This document shows, in pieces, positions 3,579 through 61,958 of a DNA stretch of 64,000 nucleotides. The notes below the pieces were generated by a model that did not search any database, had not been told where the DNA came from, and saw only the letters and a program-made list of their open reading frames with translations. This stretch comes from a virus, in IMG/VR virus record IMGVR_UViG_3300008450_000013, positions 22,811 through 86,810 of that record; one strand, given 5' to 3'. The position numbers and the translations under genes are program-made. How positions within the stretch are numbered: position 1 is the stretch's first letter; the number at the start of each line of letters is the position of its first letter.

Positions 3579-3819
3579 GAGGTTTTGGTTCTGTTGGAGC
3601 CTTTGGATCTTCTTGTTCTTCTGTTTCGTCTGCTACAGGTACTTCATCCCCACCTCCCCATTTTTCAAGCGTTACAACATATTGTGTGCCTTGGTAGGGC
3701 GCTCGTGTAGGGTTTGTAGAAGGTGTGAAGCCTTCTTTGTAGAATTTGAACAGGTCATCTACGAACGTGATGATTGAAGGTGTTACGATTTCTACTGTGT
3801 CGATTAAAGTTTTTGCCAT
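3547..3819 (-). CDS. hypothetical protein with basic C-terminal tail (KPRGRKP)
   Basis: AAAGGAAA RBS. Confidence 0.7.
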   Translation of the reverse strand: MAKTLIDTVEIVTPSIITFVDDLFKFYKEGFTPSTNPTRAPYQGTQYVVTLEKWGGGDEVPVADETEEQEDPKAPTEPKPRGRKPNGQEK

Positions 3820-4072: not shown

Positions 4073-4333
4073 ATGGCAAATACAAGAAATGACGTAACAA
4101 TACCAGCTAAAACTTGGACGAATTTATATTTAGCTTCAGGTATCACTGTTGGTACAGCAGTTTCAGTAATTAATAAAGGTATTAACGCAGCGTATATAAG
4201 CGTTGAAGCTACAACTCCAGCAGCCCCTACAGGGATGCCTAAAGGAGTTCCAAGTATCAATGGCGGTGTGACACAGACAGCACACTTGCCAACATACTCT
4301 GCTAAAACTGAGTTTGTGTATTTAGGTTTGTAA
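4073..4333 (+). CDS. hypothetical protein, probably virion-associated
   Basis: T/G/A-rich beta-type sequence; AAGGG RBS before ATG 4073; has its own promoter and terminator. Confidence 0.6.
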   Translation: MANTRNDVTIPAKTWTNLYLASGITVGTAVSVINKGINAAYISVEATTPAAPTGMPKGVPSINGGVTQTAHLPTYSAKTEFVYLGL

Positions 4334-4343
4334 TATTGTAATT

Positions 4344-4377
4344 ATACCAAGGACTAACCTCCTTGGTATTTCTTTTT
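4344..4377 (+). terminator. intrinsic terminator
   Basis: ATACCAAGGA/TCCTTGGTAT 10-bp stem followed by TTCTTTTT. Confidence 0.85.
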
Positions 4378-4387
4378 GTACAAGGGC

Positions 4388-4416
4388 TTGACAAAGCACC
4401 TGAAGTGTTATACAAT
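4388..4416 (+). promoter_or_regulatory. sigma70-type promoter of the terminase operon
   Basis: TTGACA-17-TACAAT. Confidence 0.8.
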
Positions 4417-4448
4417 GAGCGTATCAGAACAATAATAGCAGGAGATGT

Positions 4449-4829
4449 ATGAGTGGAGACGTAGATAATTCAGTAGGGGAGATAGTAAGGACAGGTGTTC
4501 AGAGTAAGAAGAACTCTATTACTATTCTGAAGAGGGCTTTGAACAAGCATACTAAAGCTGCTATTGATTTAATGGCAACTATTATGAACGACCCTACAGA
4601 GAGTAAGAAGACTCGTATGTTGGCAGCTCAAGAGATTCTAAAGTTGCACATGGAGTCTATTAAAGTTGAGTCTACTGAGAAGGCTAGGAACAAGGAATTT
4701 GCTGCGAAGCATCATGAGTTGCTTGTAAGTATTCAGCGTAATGGTGGGGTTATTGTTGATGATAGTGATAGCGAAGATGATGACGAGCAACCCCTGCTTA
4801 TGTTCGATCAGATAGCAGAAGTTGAATAA
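4449..4829 (+). CDS. putative terminase small subunit
   Basis: Helical 126-aa protein with acidic tail, last ORF upstream of terL (synteny only). Confidence 0.55.
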   Translation: MSGDVDNSVGEIVRTGVQSKKNSITILKRALNKHTKAAIDLMATIMNDPTESKKTRMLAAQEILKLHMESIKVESTEKARNKEFAAKHHELLVSIQRNGGVIVDDSDSEDDDEQPLLMFDQIAEVE

Positions 4830-4832
4830 AGA

Positions 4833-5056
4833 ATAAGGGAAGGGATCAGCCAACCCCGACAGGATTGAGGAGTTCCTTATAAACCTCGCTTAGATTGTAA
4901 ATACAACAGCTCTCCACTGATTTCTCCTTGGCACGTTCCTCCTCCTCGTGCTTTCTCCTGTCAGTGTCTGAGAGCTGTTCTGTTTGCAATTTTCACAACA
5001 GTGTTTCGTCCCATATCTGGTTAGTAGATTCAGCTCTTATCGTGGAACACTGTTGT
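4833..5056 (+). ncRNA. putative structured ncRNA with three anti-Shine-Dalgarno loops
   Basis: Stems 4833-40/4873-80, 4894-4903/4981-90, 4905-14/4970-79, 4915-20/4961-66, 4931-35/4947-51, 4995-5007/5044-56. Non-Watson-Crick pairs are G-U on the plus strand; loops are CUCCU-rich. Confidence 0.7.
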
Positions 5057-5141
5057 AGTTTCGTGGAGAGGGTAGCATTATGGCTACTAAGGTTCTGGCA
5101 GGTAGTTTAGTGGCGTGGAACTAAGAATTTAAAGGAGTATT

Positions 5142-5240
5142 ATGGTTAAAAAAGATCGAGTAAAGTTTCAACCTTGCTCAGAGAAACAAAAGCTAATTTT
5201 GATGGATAACACCACGGACGTTATCCTGATAGGCGGTGGT
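5142..5240 (+). CDS. terL: terminase large subunit, exon 1 (33 aa, MVKKDRVKFQPCSEKQ...VILIGGG)
   Basis: AAAGGAG RBS; Q motif and first half of Walker A; frame stops shortly after unless spliced. Confidence 0.88.
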
Positions 5241-5474
5241 GAACTTGCGCCTCCGCATTAAAAACAACTTCTTAAACGGTGAAACTCTCTAGTAGACAAT
5301 ACCGTGCCAAGCCCCTGAAGGGTGCAGTGCGTAACGACCAATCCGAAAGGATGTAGGGCTAAGTAGCTCGAAACAGAAGTCCTCGAAAGAGTGAAGATAT
5401 GGTCTGGTCTTTATGGTGACATAAAGCAGCTTAAAAAGCGGAAGTAGATTAACGAACTACTTTGAACACAAACA
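5241..5474 (+). mobile_element. group I intron (IA-like, 234 nt, no homing endonuclease ORF)
   Basis: P1 GCGGUGGU/GCCUCCGC with U-G at the splice site; P3 ACUUCU/AGAAGU; P4 ACGGU/ACCGU; P7 GACCA/UGGUC; P7.1, P7.2, P8; J8/7 GAAGAUA; P9 with GUGA loop. Removal restores IGGG|AGGGKS. Confidence 0.92.
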
Positions 5475-27078: not shown

Positions 27079-30000
27079 TGACTATAGCTTATTTTACTCC
27101 AAATGATGTAGACTACGTAGATCATTTTAACTTAATGGTAGATGCAGTCAATGCTGGAGGTGGTAGTAGTGGCACAGTTACTTCAGCTTCAGTTGTCTCT
27201 GCAAATGGTTTAGCAGGTACAGTGGCTAATCCTACAACAACTCCTGCCATCACCCTCACAACAACAGTGAATGGTATGGTAAAGGGCAATGGTACAGCTC
27301 TTAGTGCAGCTACAGCAGGAACAGATTATAGCGCAGGCACAGCAGCTCTTGCAACAGGTATTTTGAAGTCTACCACAACTACAGGTGGATTGACAATTGC
27401 TGTAGCTGGTGACTTTCCAACACTTAATCAAAACACGACAGGCACAGCAGCAATCTCCACAACAGCTACAACTACAAATGATGTAGCTACAGCAACGTCT
27501 GTTTATCCATTATGGTCTAGTGCTACAAGTGGTAATAACGCAGTTAAGACATCTAGCACAAAACTATCATTCGTTCCAAGTACAGGTGTGTTGACAGCAA
27601 CAGAATTTGCTGGTAGCGGGGCTTCTCTCACAAGTATCCCTAACACAGCTTTGACAAACAACTCTGTGACAATTGGTAGTACAAGCATAGCACTAGGTGC
27701 TACAGTTACGACATTCACAGGATTGTCCTCTGTCACATCAACAACATTTGTAGGTGCGCTTACAGGTAATGCTTCAACTGCCACAACAGCAGGTAATGTT
27801 ACAGGTGTAGTAGCTAGTGCTAATGGTGGTACAGGTGTGAATAATGGCGCTAGTACACTAACAATGGCTGGCAATCATGTGCTGTCCGGTGCATTCGTTT
27901 CTACGTTCACGTTCACTGGAACTACAGGAGTTACATTTCCTACAAGTGGTACATTGTTGTCAACAGCAGCAGCCGTAACTGTACCTCAAGGTGGTACTGG
28001 TCTGACATCTTTAACTTCTGGTAGCGTATTAGTTGGTGCTGGCACAAGTAGCCCTACGTTAGTGGCTCCAAGTACATCTGGTAATGTTCTTACAAGTAAT
28101 GGTACTACATGGGTATCTTCTCCCGCAACAGGTGGAGGTAGTGCTATCACTGTAAAGGACGAAGGCTCAACACTCACCAGCGCATTAACAAGTTTAGACT
28201 TCGTAGGCGCTGGTGTATCAGCGTCCAATACAGGTGGTGCTGTCACTGTCACAATCACAGGAGGTGGAGGTTCAGGGGGGACAGTGACTAGTGCTTCTGT
28301 AGTATCTGCTAATGGATTTGCAGGTTCTGTAGCTAATGCAACTACTACACCAGCTATCACATTGTCTACTACAATCTCAGGTATTCTACAAGGGAATGGA
28401 ACAGCTATTTCAGCAGCTACCACTACAGGCAGTGGTGATGTTGCATTAGCTACAAGTCCTACATTAATAACTCCTGTACTCGGTGTGGCTAGTGCAACAA
28501 CATTGAACAAGCTGGCATTCACTCAACCAGCTACAGGAGCTACACTAACAATTGCAGATGGAAAAACTCTAACTGCCAATAACACTGTAACATTTGCAGG
28601 TACAGATGGGTCTACTCTAAACTTTGGTACAGGAGGTACATTAGGTACTGCTGCTTACACAGCTTCTAGTGCTTACGCTGCTGCTGCAGGAGCTGCTACT
28701 ATTGTCACAGTTGGAACCGTTACAACAGGTACATGGAATGCTTCTGTTATTGCGGGACAATATGGTGGTACAGGAGTTAATAATTCTGGCAAGACAATCA
28801 CGTTAGGAGGTAATCATACTAACTCTGGTGCGTTTGCTAGTACGTTTACATTCACTGGTACAACTACTGTAACATTCCCTACAAGCGGTACTCTACTTTC
28901 TACAGCAGCAGCAGTCACAGTAGCGCAAGGTGGTACTGGTCTTGCAACACTGACAGCTAACAATGTGATGCTTGGCAATGGTACAAGTACGCCATTGTTT
29001 GTAGCTCCTAGTACCTCTGGGAATGTATTGACTAGCAATGGCACTACATGGACATCTGCAGCTCCATCAGGAGGCTCTAGTGGCAGTGCTTACATAACAA
29101 GAACATCTAACACAATTCTTGGAACAGGAGATGTTGGTGACTTCATTGATATCACGTCAGGTACGTTTACACAGACATTTACAGCAGCAGCTACACTAGG
29201 AAGCTCTTGGTTTGTGTGGTTACGCAACTCAGGAACAGGGGTTATTACACTTGACCCCAACGCATCTGAAACAATAGACGGTGTGGCTACAACGGTTATG
29301 TACCCTAATGAAGTTAGGAAAGTTCAGTGTACAGGGACTGCTTTTATATCAACAGTGGAAGTTCCATTCTTCTATCGCATTACCTCTTCAGCAACATTTA
29401 TTAAGCCTTCTGGATATTCTGTCATTGAATTAGAAGTTGTTGGAGGTGGAGGTGGTGGGGGTGGGGGACGTGGAGGCTCTGGAACAACAGCTAGAACTGG
29501 TGGAGGTGGTGGGGGTGGAGGTGCTTACGTCAGATACACACTATCAGGGTCAAATTTATCTGCTGGTTTTTGTCAAGTAGGTGCAGGAGGGTCGGGAGGT
29601 ACAACAAGTGGGGGTAATGGGTCAAATGGAGGGAGTTCTTATGCCATTGTTAGTGATTCTTCTTCGGCACACCAATTTCTTGTACAAGCATTTGGAGGAG
29701 GTGGAGGCACAGGTGCAGCAAGTACAGGTGCGGGAGGTGCTGGTGGAGGAGCTACCAGCGGTGCAAGCACGACAACTGCTGGAAATGGAAATCTAGTAGG
29801 ATACGACTCAGGGGCAAGTAGTTCTGCTGGTACTGTCTCTGGTGGCGGGGTTGGAGGAGACGGAGGTTCTACATCTGGATCAGATGGAGGAGTTTCAGCA
29901 TTTACCACTCAAGTAGGTGGCTGTGGAGGTGGTGGAGGTGGGGGTGTCAGTTCAACTGTGGCTGGAACAGGGGGTGTTGGGTTTGGTATTTTTAACTCAA

Positions 30001-48316: not shown

Positions 48317-48515
48317 GTTTCTCCTTTACAATTTTATTCAAGACATCATCTACAGATTGTCCCACAACATCATACTCATTGAATTGAAAGTATATCCTAA
48401 GTGGCATTCCTATGCAAGCATCTTTTTCAAATAAGTCTACGTCTTGAAGGGCGAGATGTGATAAGAGGTAGTTGTACTTTTGTTCTATTGTTGGCATGGT
48501 TTTCACTTCGTTCAT
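48297..48515 (-). CDS. hypothetical protein
   Basis: AAAGGAGAAA RBS. Confidence 0.7.
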   Translation of the reverse strand: MNEVKTMPTIEQKYNYLLSHLALQDVDLFEKDACIGMPLRIYFQFNEYDVVGQSVDDVLNKIVKEKHEAKIQ

Positions 48516-48835
48516 GTTTTCTCCTTTGTAATAAACCTACTATGAATCCACATACCTAACATCGCTCCGCTACCACTACCAAATCCTATCCAAAATACTA
48601 GCCAACCCCATCCATGCTTACTAATCACTGTGATAGTCCAAACTTCCATGACTGCCATCATAAGCGATACAGGCATAATAAGCAAGTAGTGTTTGCCAGA
48701 TACTGATAATTGCTGAAATGCTTTGAGTGCAACAAAACAGAAGCTTGCAAAGAATGCTAGGAAGTACATTAGCTGTGGTTCGTACACATTACTCATAGCT
48801 ATCCTCAAACAACTCCTTGCAATTCTTAATATCAT
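48512..48835 (-). CDS. three-TM membrane protein
   Basis: Hydrophobic; GFGSGSGAMLGM; true start probably MSNVYE. Confidence 0.7.
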   Translation of the reverse strand: MILRIARSCLRIAMSNVYEPQLMYFLAFFASFCFVALKAFQQLSVSGKHYLLIMPVSLMMAVMEVWTITVISKHGWGWLVFWIGFGSGSGAMLGMWIHSRFITKEKT

Positions 48836-61195: not shown

Positions 61196-61204
61196 AATTT
61201 CTCC

Positions 61205-61540
61205 TTAACTAACCCGCACAGTATAAACAACTCCAGCTTCCACATTTGGAAACAGAGCTTTCCAATTATTCTCAGCTTGTACAATACTGTCTACCAAGCC
61301 TTTTAGCTTACGTGGGTACACTTTGAATCCCACCCAATAATAGCCTCCTGAATAGTAATTTAAGCAGTCTACATCAAGGTTAGATGAGTGACTTGACATA
61401 AACTCAGTAATGCCATCTTCTTCAATTTCCTCAGAGTCTTCCTCAGAAATAATACCTTGTTCTTCCAAGAACTCTACAACTTCACTTCTACTGTCAAACT
61501 CTAAACCAATGCCTAAGATTGGTGTGTAATCTACTCCCAT
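61205..61540 (-). CDS. acidic hypothetical protein
   Basis: AAGGAGAAA RBS. Confidence 0.7.
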   Translation of the reverse strand: MGVDYTPILGIGLEFDSRSEVVEFLEEQGIISEEDSEEIEEDGITEFMSSHSSNLDVDCLNYYSGGYYWVGFKVYPRKLKGLVDSIVQAENNWKALFPNVEAGVVYTVRVS

Positions 61541-61541
61541 G

Positions 61542-61958
61542 TTATTTCTCCTTTTCTCTAGAAAATATTAAGTTTCCAACCCGCTTATGCTTATCAGCCC
61601 ACCTGTGTTTGCTCCTAAAGTGATTGAAGTACAAAGCTTCACTTGTTAATACAGGCTTCATGTTATACGCTTTCCAGAACTTTGTCAAGAACTGCTTATC
61701 TTTCACCTTACGAATCCCTGTACGCTTCACATACGGAAACTGTCCGGCTTGAAAAATCGTTTCACTTATCGTTACATTATTCTTTGCAACCCTATTGTTC
61801 ACAACGTCTAAGACAGCCCTAATCGTTTCAACAGACTCCCCACGAGCTTCACGGTAAGTGACGTATTGAAGCATTTGAATGTCTGTTGGACTTTTAATAG
61901 CTGCTACAGAGCTTACAGAAATAATAGAAAGCATTATAGCAGCTATTGTGTGTTTCAT
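61542..61958 (-). CDS. SleB-like cell wall hydrolase with signal peptide
   Basis: YREARGE, VVNNR, QF and GNLIF motifs. Confidence 0.85.
   Translation of the reverse strand: MKHTIAAIMLSIISVSSVAAIKSPTDIQMLQYVTYREARGESVETIRAVLDVVNNRVAKNNVTISETIFQAGQFPYVKRTGIRKVKDKQFLTKFWKAYNMKPVLTSEALYFNHFRSKHRWADKHKRVGNLIFSREKEK

Follow-up and report, generated by a model that had tools for sequence, protein, structure and literature searches.

A covarying RNA hairpin with three exposed anti-Shine-Dalgarno loops upstream of terL in uncultured freshwater phages

The 64,000-nucleotide stretch of DNA analysed here (39% G+C), hereafter the window, comprises bases 22811-86810 of the 86.8-kb IMG/VR virus record IMGVR_UViG_3300008450_000013, an uncultured phage from freshwater metagenomes. 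Upstream of the gene terL it encodes a hairpin of about 100 nucleotides (nt) whose internal and apical loops carry pyrimidine motifs complementary to Shine-Dalgarno (SD) sequences. We find that this hairpin is a new RNA family in a clade of ~85-90-kb freshwater phages and that selection acts on the plus-strand RNA. Its stems change compensatorily while its loops keep CUCC, so that structural constraint on the stems is combined with sequence constraint on the loops, the signature of a functional RNA with loops contacting something. The reading that we favour, with a probability of about 0.4, is that the hairpin is processed into a small RNA that would mask GGAG-type SD sites.

A plus-strand hairpin with constrained loops

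An earlier note on this DNA had described a ~97-nt hairpin, with its helices and loops, in a 312-nt gap between terS and terL. RNAfold of 4894-4990 reproduced the fold, and the length of the gap follows from the stop codon of the upstream open reading frame (ORF) at 4829 and the terL ATG at 5142. The stems pair 4893-4903 with 4981-4991, 4905-4914 with 4970-4979, 4915-4921 with 4960-4966 and 4930-4935 with 4947-4952, with a C-C mismatch (4904/4980) and a 3-nt bulge (4967-4969) as irregularities. The minimum free energy of the plus strand is -41.7 kcal/mol (z = -9.62; none of 200 dinucleotide shuffles was equally stable) and that of the reverse complement only -30.5 kcal/mol, and folding the entire gap leaves the hairpin unchanged.

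Relatives were collected by TerL and upstream-ORF searches of IMG/VR and JGI metagenomes, and a covariance model was built first from four sequences and then rebuilt from ten. Nine strong members score 81-116 bits (the window, L001, L002, L003, L036, L037, L039, L040 and L042) and three divergent members score lower (L020 at 59 bits, L023 and L009 at 27 bits each). All model matches lie on the plus strand 5' of terL, with exactly one copy of the hairpin per genome. Under default filters the model had no match in five complete genomes of more distant relatives, and a scan of IMG/VR for GCTCTCC...GTTGTAGAGC, which gave at least 117 stretches, yielded no new members among the 80 loci (738 kb) tested. 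These loci served as a specificity control, in which the model accepted only two known members and rejected unrelated phage DNA sharing the 17-base pattern. Since neither megablast nor blastn matched the hairpin region in INPHARED phages and the closest TerL there is only 41% identical, the phage has no annotated relative in that collection. A collection of bacterial and archaeal genomes held no relative of the upstream ORF or TerL and so gave no clue to the host.

In the ten-sequence alignment 98.7% of the cells form standard pairs, a share that falls to 34-50% on sliding the 3' partners by 1-3 columns. Changes on both sides are seen in 21 of the 31 pairs, 16 of the 31 being compensatory among the first four sequences, and the covariation score was reached by none of 500 shuffles. 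Whole helices have been exchanged, CACUGA/UCAGUG being replaced by CGUCAA/UUGACG, and GCACG/CGUGC by CCAUG/CAUGG or CCGUG/CACGG. Counted from the per-pair table, about 39 cells hold G-U and 4 are non-standard, and at one position U-G, C-G and U-A alternate. Since G-U in the plus-strand sense would be A-C in a DNA cruciform or on the minus strand, it is the plus-strand RNA that is selected, and the earlier suggestion that this strand folds is borne out by both the covariation and the G-U asymmetry. Model scores are 28-30 bits for the minus strand and 98-116 bits (81 for L036) for the plus strand.

The unpaired interior of the hairpin is 93% pyrimidine, compared with 49% in the stems, and 43 of the 62 paired columns vary. 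The earlier note had seen anti-SD motifs in three CU-rich loops and had proposed a search for covarying stems with invariant loops; the stems do covary, and the loops are constrained in sequence, CUCC being retained with one departure (a 3' loop of UUUCCU in L001). They are also predicted to be accessible, with an unpaired probability of ~1.0 for all three in each of the nine members (150-nt flanks on each side) and of 1.0 in a 400-nt context in the window. The apical loop is 7-11 nt long among members, its variants being UUCCUCCUCCU, UUCUCCUCCUU, UCCUCCUCCUU, CACUCCU and CCCUCCU. The fourth CUCC listed in Table 1 has an unpaired probability of 0-0.26, and its junction, CUCC...GUUG(N)AG, is also found in the distant L023 and L009 hairpins. 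CU-rich loops are not a general property of these genomes: in the intergenic hairpins of nine of them, CU-rich unpaired runs (28/514) are no commoner than GA-rich ones (29/514), at ~5% each, in a scan that overlooked the main hairpin in four genomes owing to spurious ORF calls.

Several other identities were considered and rejected. The Rfam search proposed in the earlier note gave no family at gathering score across the whole window and no match to the hairpin even at E <= 10; between 4300 and 5700 only a group I intron matched at E <= 1, and none of the three further matches listed (snoRNA families, E 4.2-9.7) overlaps the hairpin. A coding origin does not fit, as the overlapping ORFs at 4928-5110 (+) and 4846-4989 (-) begin with TTG and are disrupted in relatives by internal indels of 1, 2, 3 and 4 nt. 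Nor does a terminator scan call the hairpin as an intrinsic (Rho-independent) terminator, a structure with a G+C-rich stem, a loop of 3-8 nt and then, directly, at least five U residues: its basal stem is A/U-rich and followed only by UUUU, and U-richness varies among members. Conserved pseudoknot partners for the loops were sought in the purine-rich segments 4867-4876 and 5064-5075, both of which are missing or non-complementary in several members.

Table 1. Positions of the hairpin, its loops and associated features in the window
Feature	Position	Strand	Remarks
Conserved RNA hairpin	4893..4991	+	~100 nt; covariance-model match covers 4886-4998; CM R1 110 bits
Internal loop, 5' side, UUCUCCUU	4922..4929	+	Exact complement of AAGGAGAA; UCUCC in 9/9 close members
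Apical loop, UUCCUCCUCCU	4936..4946	+	Contains CCUCC, complement of GGAGG; CUCC(U) in 9/9 members
Internal loop, 3' side, UUCUCCU	4953..4959	+	UCUCCU in 8/9 members; L001 has UUUCCU
Fourth CUCC, base-paired in model	4912..4915	+	5' arm, at junction with 3' bulge; invariant in 10/10 aligned sequences
Candidate trans target, AAGGAGAAA site of minus-strand gene	48318..48326	-	Further at 48518-48526, 61198-61206, 61545-61553
Structural translation initiation region of major head gene, AAAGGAAAA	11122		
Sigma-70 promoter, near-consensus	4388..4416	+	TTGACA-17-TACAAT, 11/12 positions matching
Upstream ORF ('terS' by position only)	4449..4829	+	126 aa; alongside hairpin in 9/9 close members
Conserved upstream flank AGGAUUGAGGAGUUCCUUAUAAACCUC, small GAGG/CCUC hairpin	4861..4887	+	Flank comparison; tRNA gene there instead in L003, L040
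terL Shine-Dalgarno, AAAGGAG	5131..5137	+	Candidate cis target
terL exon 1	5142..5240	+	Exon 2 from 5475

Shine-Dalgarno usage and a possible trans-acting RNA

The phages that carry the hairpin divide their genes by SD type. Counting GGAG within -22 to -4 of start codons, we found it in the five hairpin genomes (G000 and G006-G009) before 54-63% of non-structural genes and only 10-19% of structural genes (Fisher p 2e-6 to 5e-4), whereas in four relatives without the triple-loop hairpin the values are 24-40% and 21-28%, a difference that is not significant. Non-structural genes mostly have AAGGAGAA or AGGAGG, and their commonest site, (A/T)AAGGAGAA, is perfectly complementary to the internal loops UUCUCCUU, whereas AAAGGAA(A/T) predominates among structural genes. 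In the window the structural genes at 7006-32736 (+) contrast in SD type with the minus-strand genes, AAGGAGAA occurring 27 times on the minus strand of the genome and twice on the plus strand, and GGAG sites of the structural strand cluster at the upstream ORF, terL and the portal gene. The best duplex between a loop and a ribosome-binding site (RBS) reaches -9 kcal/mol or lower for 74 of 124 non-structural genes and for 4 of 27 structural genes. The sequence AAGGAGAAA has 5 matches in the window, the loop itself among them, where 1.0 is expected, and the RBS matches that had been claimed for it are confirmed; they lie on the minus strand at 48318, 48518, 61198 and 61545, directly 5' of minus-strand genes. 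The positions quoted in the earlier note for AGGAGG, as the complement of CCUCCU, are likewise correct.

The surroundings of the hairpin in relatives bear on how it might act. In L003 and L040, tRNA genes on the same strand end 3-6 nt 5' of it (L003: tRNA 2147-2221, hairpin stem from 2225; L040: tRNA 3584-3652, hairpin match from 3651), and in L008 an analogous hairpin at 2845-2922 is followed 2 nt later by a tRNA gene starting at 2925. The position before terL holds one to seven tRNAs in G001, G002, L020, L021 and L036, and the hairpin belongs to a small-stable-RNA island. Since tRNA-processing enzymes would cut the abutting tRNAs away, the adjacency suggests that in these relatives the hairpin is released as a discrete stable RNA, and the context points to tRNA-type processing over release by RNase III because it is tRNA genes that abut it. 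No tRNA gene was found in the window's own genome, so the ends of the RNA are not predictable there.

We favour action in trans after release because tRNA genes adjoin the hairpin in relatives, because its surroundings vary and because its loops match a genome-wide consensus. The hairpin would be co-transcribed with the packaging genes from promoter 4388, which would drive the upstream ORF, the hairpin and terL, would be trimmed from the precursor, in relatives by the enzymes that process the adjoining tRNAs, and would build up as a stable small RNA. Each loop would then pair with GGAG-type SD sites over 7-9 bp, the pairing with AAGGAGAA exceeding the number of pairs possible for the canonical 16S tail. 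The sites so masked would be those of most non-structural phage genes together with the upstream ORF, terL and portal, and presumably of strong-SD host mRNAs; binding of the 30S subunit to them would be blocked, and ribosomes would move to the structural mRNAs, whose AAAGGAA-type sites pair poorly with the loops. In its effect such an RNA would parallel RegB, the nuclease of T4. Small RNAs with anti-SD loop motifs, namely the cuckoo RNAs and RNAIII, repress translation at the RBS (PMC4615179). Searches of the phage for RegB, ribosomal protein S21, Hfq and RNase III found no homologue.

A more specific version of this proposal, which we offer as tentative and on balance doubtful, is that the RNA works as a translational timer. 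Accumulating loops would gradually mask AAGGAGAA sites, and AAAGGAA-type structural mRNAs, having evolved to escape, would gain ribosomes. Such a timer would need neither a phage nuclease nor a new sigma factor and might mask strong-SD host mRNAs as well.

A number of points weigh against regulation in trans. The gene starts behind the SD counts are heuristic, the choice of start keying only on a GGA core. The five hairpin genomes form one clade of lower GC, which makes the link between hairpin and SD usage effectively a single evolutionary observation; host differences could explain the contrast in SD usage, and structural genes avoid GGAG in the hairpin-less relatives too, that is, in all nine genomes. 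The earlier note had placed the RNA late in infection, a timing that is not established: near-consensus promoters of the sigma-70 type drive both structural and non-structural modules, and no temporal switch is evident. Among the assembled contigs of four public runs the sole RNA contig, from a freshwater metatranscriptome, corresponds to 4579-4839 and ends before the hairpin, and as the hairpin is no clean terminator the 3' end of the RNA is uncertain in genomes without flanking tRNAs, the window's own included. A general anti-SD competitor must moreover be very abundant to matter, and it would also act on the phage's own upstream ORF, terL and portal.

Alternative explanations

The same loops could act in cis. 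As a governor of the packaging genes, the hairpin would remain in the polycistronic mRNA and pair with nearby GGAG sites (those of the upstream ORF, the first downstream ORF and portal), limiting low-copy proteins, while capsid and tail genes on the same strand, with AAAGGAA, would escape. We regard this as rather unlikely, though it has the best claim among the alternatives. The first ORF 3' of the hairpin has a GGAG-type site in 11 of 11 loci, and the site is kept even though the ORF at this place differs among loci, about six unrelated kinds being represented (small ORFs, a 323-aa ORF and two types of terL); the GGAG sites of the structural strand are concentrated on just the genes concerned, the right loop pairs with CAGGAGA of the upstream ORF at -10.8 kcal/mol, and pairing in cis does not require a high copy number. 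With GGAG present before ~60% of non-structural genes in any case, finding it in 11 of 11 loci is only mildly unexpected. The distance from hairpin to next start ranges from ~10 nt (L020) to ~250 nt with unrelated modules between, no covariation was seen between the loops and any particular downstream SD, and in several relatives the directly adjoining tRNA genes imply separation of the hairpin from its neighbours by cleavage. The narrower cis alternative of the earlier note, sequestration of the terL RBS, named a site, AAAGGAG, that is indeed present at 5131-5137, and is weakened by relatives in which other ORFs intervene or in which terL has been swapped for a 32%-identical one while the hairpin persists. 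The hairpin may have a broader cis role, given the GGAG site on the first downstream ORF in all 11 loci.

Improbable, in our judgement, is a role in processing or stability only, in which the hairpin would be an RNase III-type or tRNA-island element, a 3' protection or a leaky terminator, and its loops would have no pairing function. Its near-continuous helix of ~27 bp with an internal loop resembles what is generally known of the RNase III sites of phage T7, and the geometry (about two turns of double-stranded RNA plus the internal loop) is compatible with such a site; the phage itself encodes no RNase III. Selection maintains the structure of the stems, most members have a short U-run after the stem, and a location among tRNAs is one where precursor processing is expected. 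Processing leaves unexplained, however, why loops that are 93% pyrimidine keep CUCC while 21 of the 31 stem pairs change; the terminator scan does not call the hairpin, and CU-rich and GA-rich unpaired runs are equally rare (~5% each) in the intergenic hairpins of the nine genomes.

Slightly less probable still is a protein platform or decoy, whose loops would recruit, titrate or distract a protein recognising CU-rich single strands or the 16S 3' tail (CCUCC), such as ribosomal protein S1, an anti-SD-directed nuclease or toxin, or a factor acting on the 16S 3' end. The hairpin does present three equally spaced, exposed pyrimidine tracts on a rigid scaffold, the apical loop has the anti-SD core CCUCC, and S1 is a cofactor in the T4 RegB system (PMC3014915). 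The internal loops are nevertheless UCUCC and not the CCUCC of 16S, the searches for Hfq, S21, RNase III and RegB gave no candidate RNA-binding protein in the phage, and a decoy role would not account for loops that match the SD consensus of the phage itself.

A DNA cruciform or packaging signal, suggested by the position between putative terS and terL, where pac or cos signals often lie, or a minus-strand RNA exposing GGA motifs as in CsrA-type sponges, suggested by a minus-strand fold of -30.5 kcal/mol whose loops show AGGAG or GGAGGAGGA, is very improbable, because the G-U excess, with its U-G to C-G and U-A exchanges, means that wobble is tolerated only in the plus-strand sense, and because minus-strand model scores are three- to four-fold lower, the neighbouring genes are all on the plus strand and no strong minus-strand promoter faces the hairpin.

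Known systems and the surrounding locus

The hairpin resembles the cuckoo RNAs, RNAIII and c4 RNA by function and RegB by logic, but belongs to none of these families, since its architecture and motif differ and no Rfam model matches. An accessible C/U-rich loop complementary to the SD, the mark of small RNAs with anti-SD loops, is present in all nine strong members. The closest likeness is to the cuckoo RNAs (alpha-r14/r15, such as NfeR1, and CcsR1-4 of Rhodobacter), whose only conserved sequence is the anti-SD-like C/U motif CCUCCUCCC, shown two to four times in unpaired loops on stems that drift compensatorily and thought to repress at the RBS (PMC4615179, PMC3927594). The phage hairpin, too, repeats an unpaired anti-SD-like C/U motif while its stems drift. 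Cuckoo RNAs, however, consist of two to four distinct short hairpins of 24-50 nt, the apical loop of each bearing the motif, and are encoded on bacterial chromosomes, whereas the phage-encoded element is one 97-nt hairpin with two motifs across an internal loop and one in the apical loop, with the core UCUCCU or CUCCU. Membership of the cuckoo family, RSs0680/CcsR included, was rejected on the single hairpin and on the apical loop, which has CCUCCUCC only in some members and CACUCCU or CCCUCCU in others, and the cuckoo covariance models of Rfam do not match the hairpin.

In Staphylococcus aureus RNAIII, several UCCC hairpin loops make the first contact with the SDs of several target mRNAs (PMC4615179). 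RNAIII, a bacterial regulator of 514 nt built from many hairpins, has specific, extended targets, in contrast to the generic SD consensus addressed by the phage loops, and no homology between the two was detected. T4 RegB cuts GGAG SDs followed by A-rich sequence (GGAGRAYARAA); many early mRNAs are inactivated in this way, but late GGAG transcripts without exception, and most middle ones, resist it (PMC3014915). The bias of gene classes in GGAG use described here has the same logic, but RegB is a protein nuclease working with S1, whereas the agent proposed here, in a phage without a RegB homologue, would be an RNA that masks and does not cut; the parallel is a functional analogy only.

Two phage RNAs also invite comparison. 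A tRNA-processing enzyme releases the mature c4 antisense RNA from a longer transcript. In phages P1/P7 this small RNA blocks translation by pairing of its loops around the RBS (PMC12197685). It targets one mRNA region (ant/icd) in an immunity circuit, whereas the present loops are generic anti-SD, and Rfam scans gave no match to the C4 family. The species 1 and 2 RNAs of T4 are structured non-tRNA RNAs that lie among the phage tRNA genes and are cut from the same precursor, and their function has long been enigmatic. The hairpin lies next to a tRNA gene only in relatives of the window's phage, and the likeness is one of description.

Accounts of how phages control the gene expression of the host and their own rest mostly on proteins, among them nucleases (RegB, for example), homologues of ribosomal proteins, and sigma and anti-sigma factors. 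If the trans-acting reading is right, a phage RNA that mimics the anti-SD three times, combined with the split in RBS usage, would amount to RNA-based sorting of mRNAs at translation initiation, would give a function to the enigmatic non-tRNA stable RNAs of phage tRNA islands and would offer a compact, portable part for SD-class-specific translational control. Even should the trans model fail, the hairpin, with its 21 covarying pairs, is well supported as a new family of structured RNA in abundant freshwater phages.

As for the genes around it, only half of the label terS-terL gap stands: terL is backed by PHROG 979, although it is split by an intron, whereas the upstream ORF, at 69-97% tblastn identity in relatives, matched no PHROG or Pfam family and is terS by position alone. 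The genes neighbouring the hairpin are all on the plus strand. The promoter that had been claimed at 4388 is found as described, with 11 of 12 consensus positions, and a terminator-like hairpin at 4344-4369 lies 5' of it. The 234-nt group I intron of terL (5241-5474; Rfam RF00028, 44.9 bits, E = 7.5e-10, slightly below the gathering score of 50) has no ORF and interrupts the Walker A motif (IGGG|AGGGKS); a G shared at the junction means that the boundary may be placed one base further right. In L001 terL is uninterrupted. Other relatives have group I introns at other positions (L002 ~4170-4420, L003 4150-4392 and L036 1304-1521), one coming after ...SQLTR (RF00028, 83 bits in L003) and another, scoring 62 bits in L036, interrupting the alternative terL type (32% identical) near Walker A. 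Within this phage group terL is thus a hot spot for introns.

The region is a mosaic, with unrelated modules between hairpin and terL (the 323-aa ORF, small ORFs and further hairpins). In G008 and G009, contigs of L037 and L040, and also in L036, terL has been swapped for a 32-33%-identical type while the upstream ORF and the hairpin are retained, and L042 joins a window-like upstream ORF (97%) with an L003-like hairpin. Because terL has been swapped and parts recombined with the hairpin retained, recombination breakpoints flank the hairpin. A 323-324-aa ORF with its own promoter-like sequence lies between hairpin and terL in L002 (2564-3535) and L003 (2803-3777), and L039 and L042 show similar 5' ends. 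No Pfam family matches this ORF, which, from its position beside an intron-rich terL, could be a free-standing homing endonuclease.

Further structured elements accompany the hairpin. A second hairpin at 4996-5056 (CACAACAGUGUUUCG...CGUGGAACACUGUUGU) has nearly the same sequence in L001, L002, L036 and L040, is absent from L003, L037, L039 and L042 and has no Rfam match. Between it and the terL SD, 5064-5125 holds a purine-rich leader (GUGGAGAGGG / GAGGUGAGAGGA), two small stem-loops and a G/U-rich loop (AAGGUUAGUGUGGUG). The leader element, also found at G001 ~27783 and G002 ~49117, is a candidate 5'-untranslated-region element of terL, since relatives that lack the hairpin have kept it as well.

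Long hairpins lie beside the tRNA genes of more distant relatives (L009 3150-3215, L008 2845-2922, L021 2762-2827, L015 2629-2696 and L016 2835-2920), each with a single apical CCUCC-type loop (CCUCCUCUCC, CCCUCCU, CCCUCCUC or CCCUCCCU). Among these only L009 scores with the model (27 bits), and background alone gives such loops at ~5% per hairpin. The single-loop hairpins near terL in L008, L015, L016 and L021 were rejected as family members, with L008 at 8 bits; as they share no detectable sequence with the family and the background is ~5%, their homology is unproven. Right after tRNA-Thr, finally, L020 (2669-2785) and G001 (27416-27530), whose TerL proteins are each ~70% identical to that of the window, share a nearly identical structured stretch of ~115 nt, closed by UUGCAGU...ACUGCAA, which may be another stable RNA of the tRNA island.

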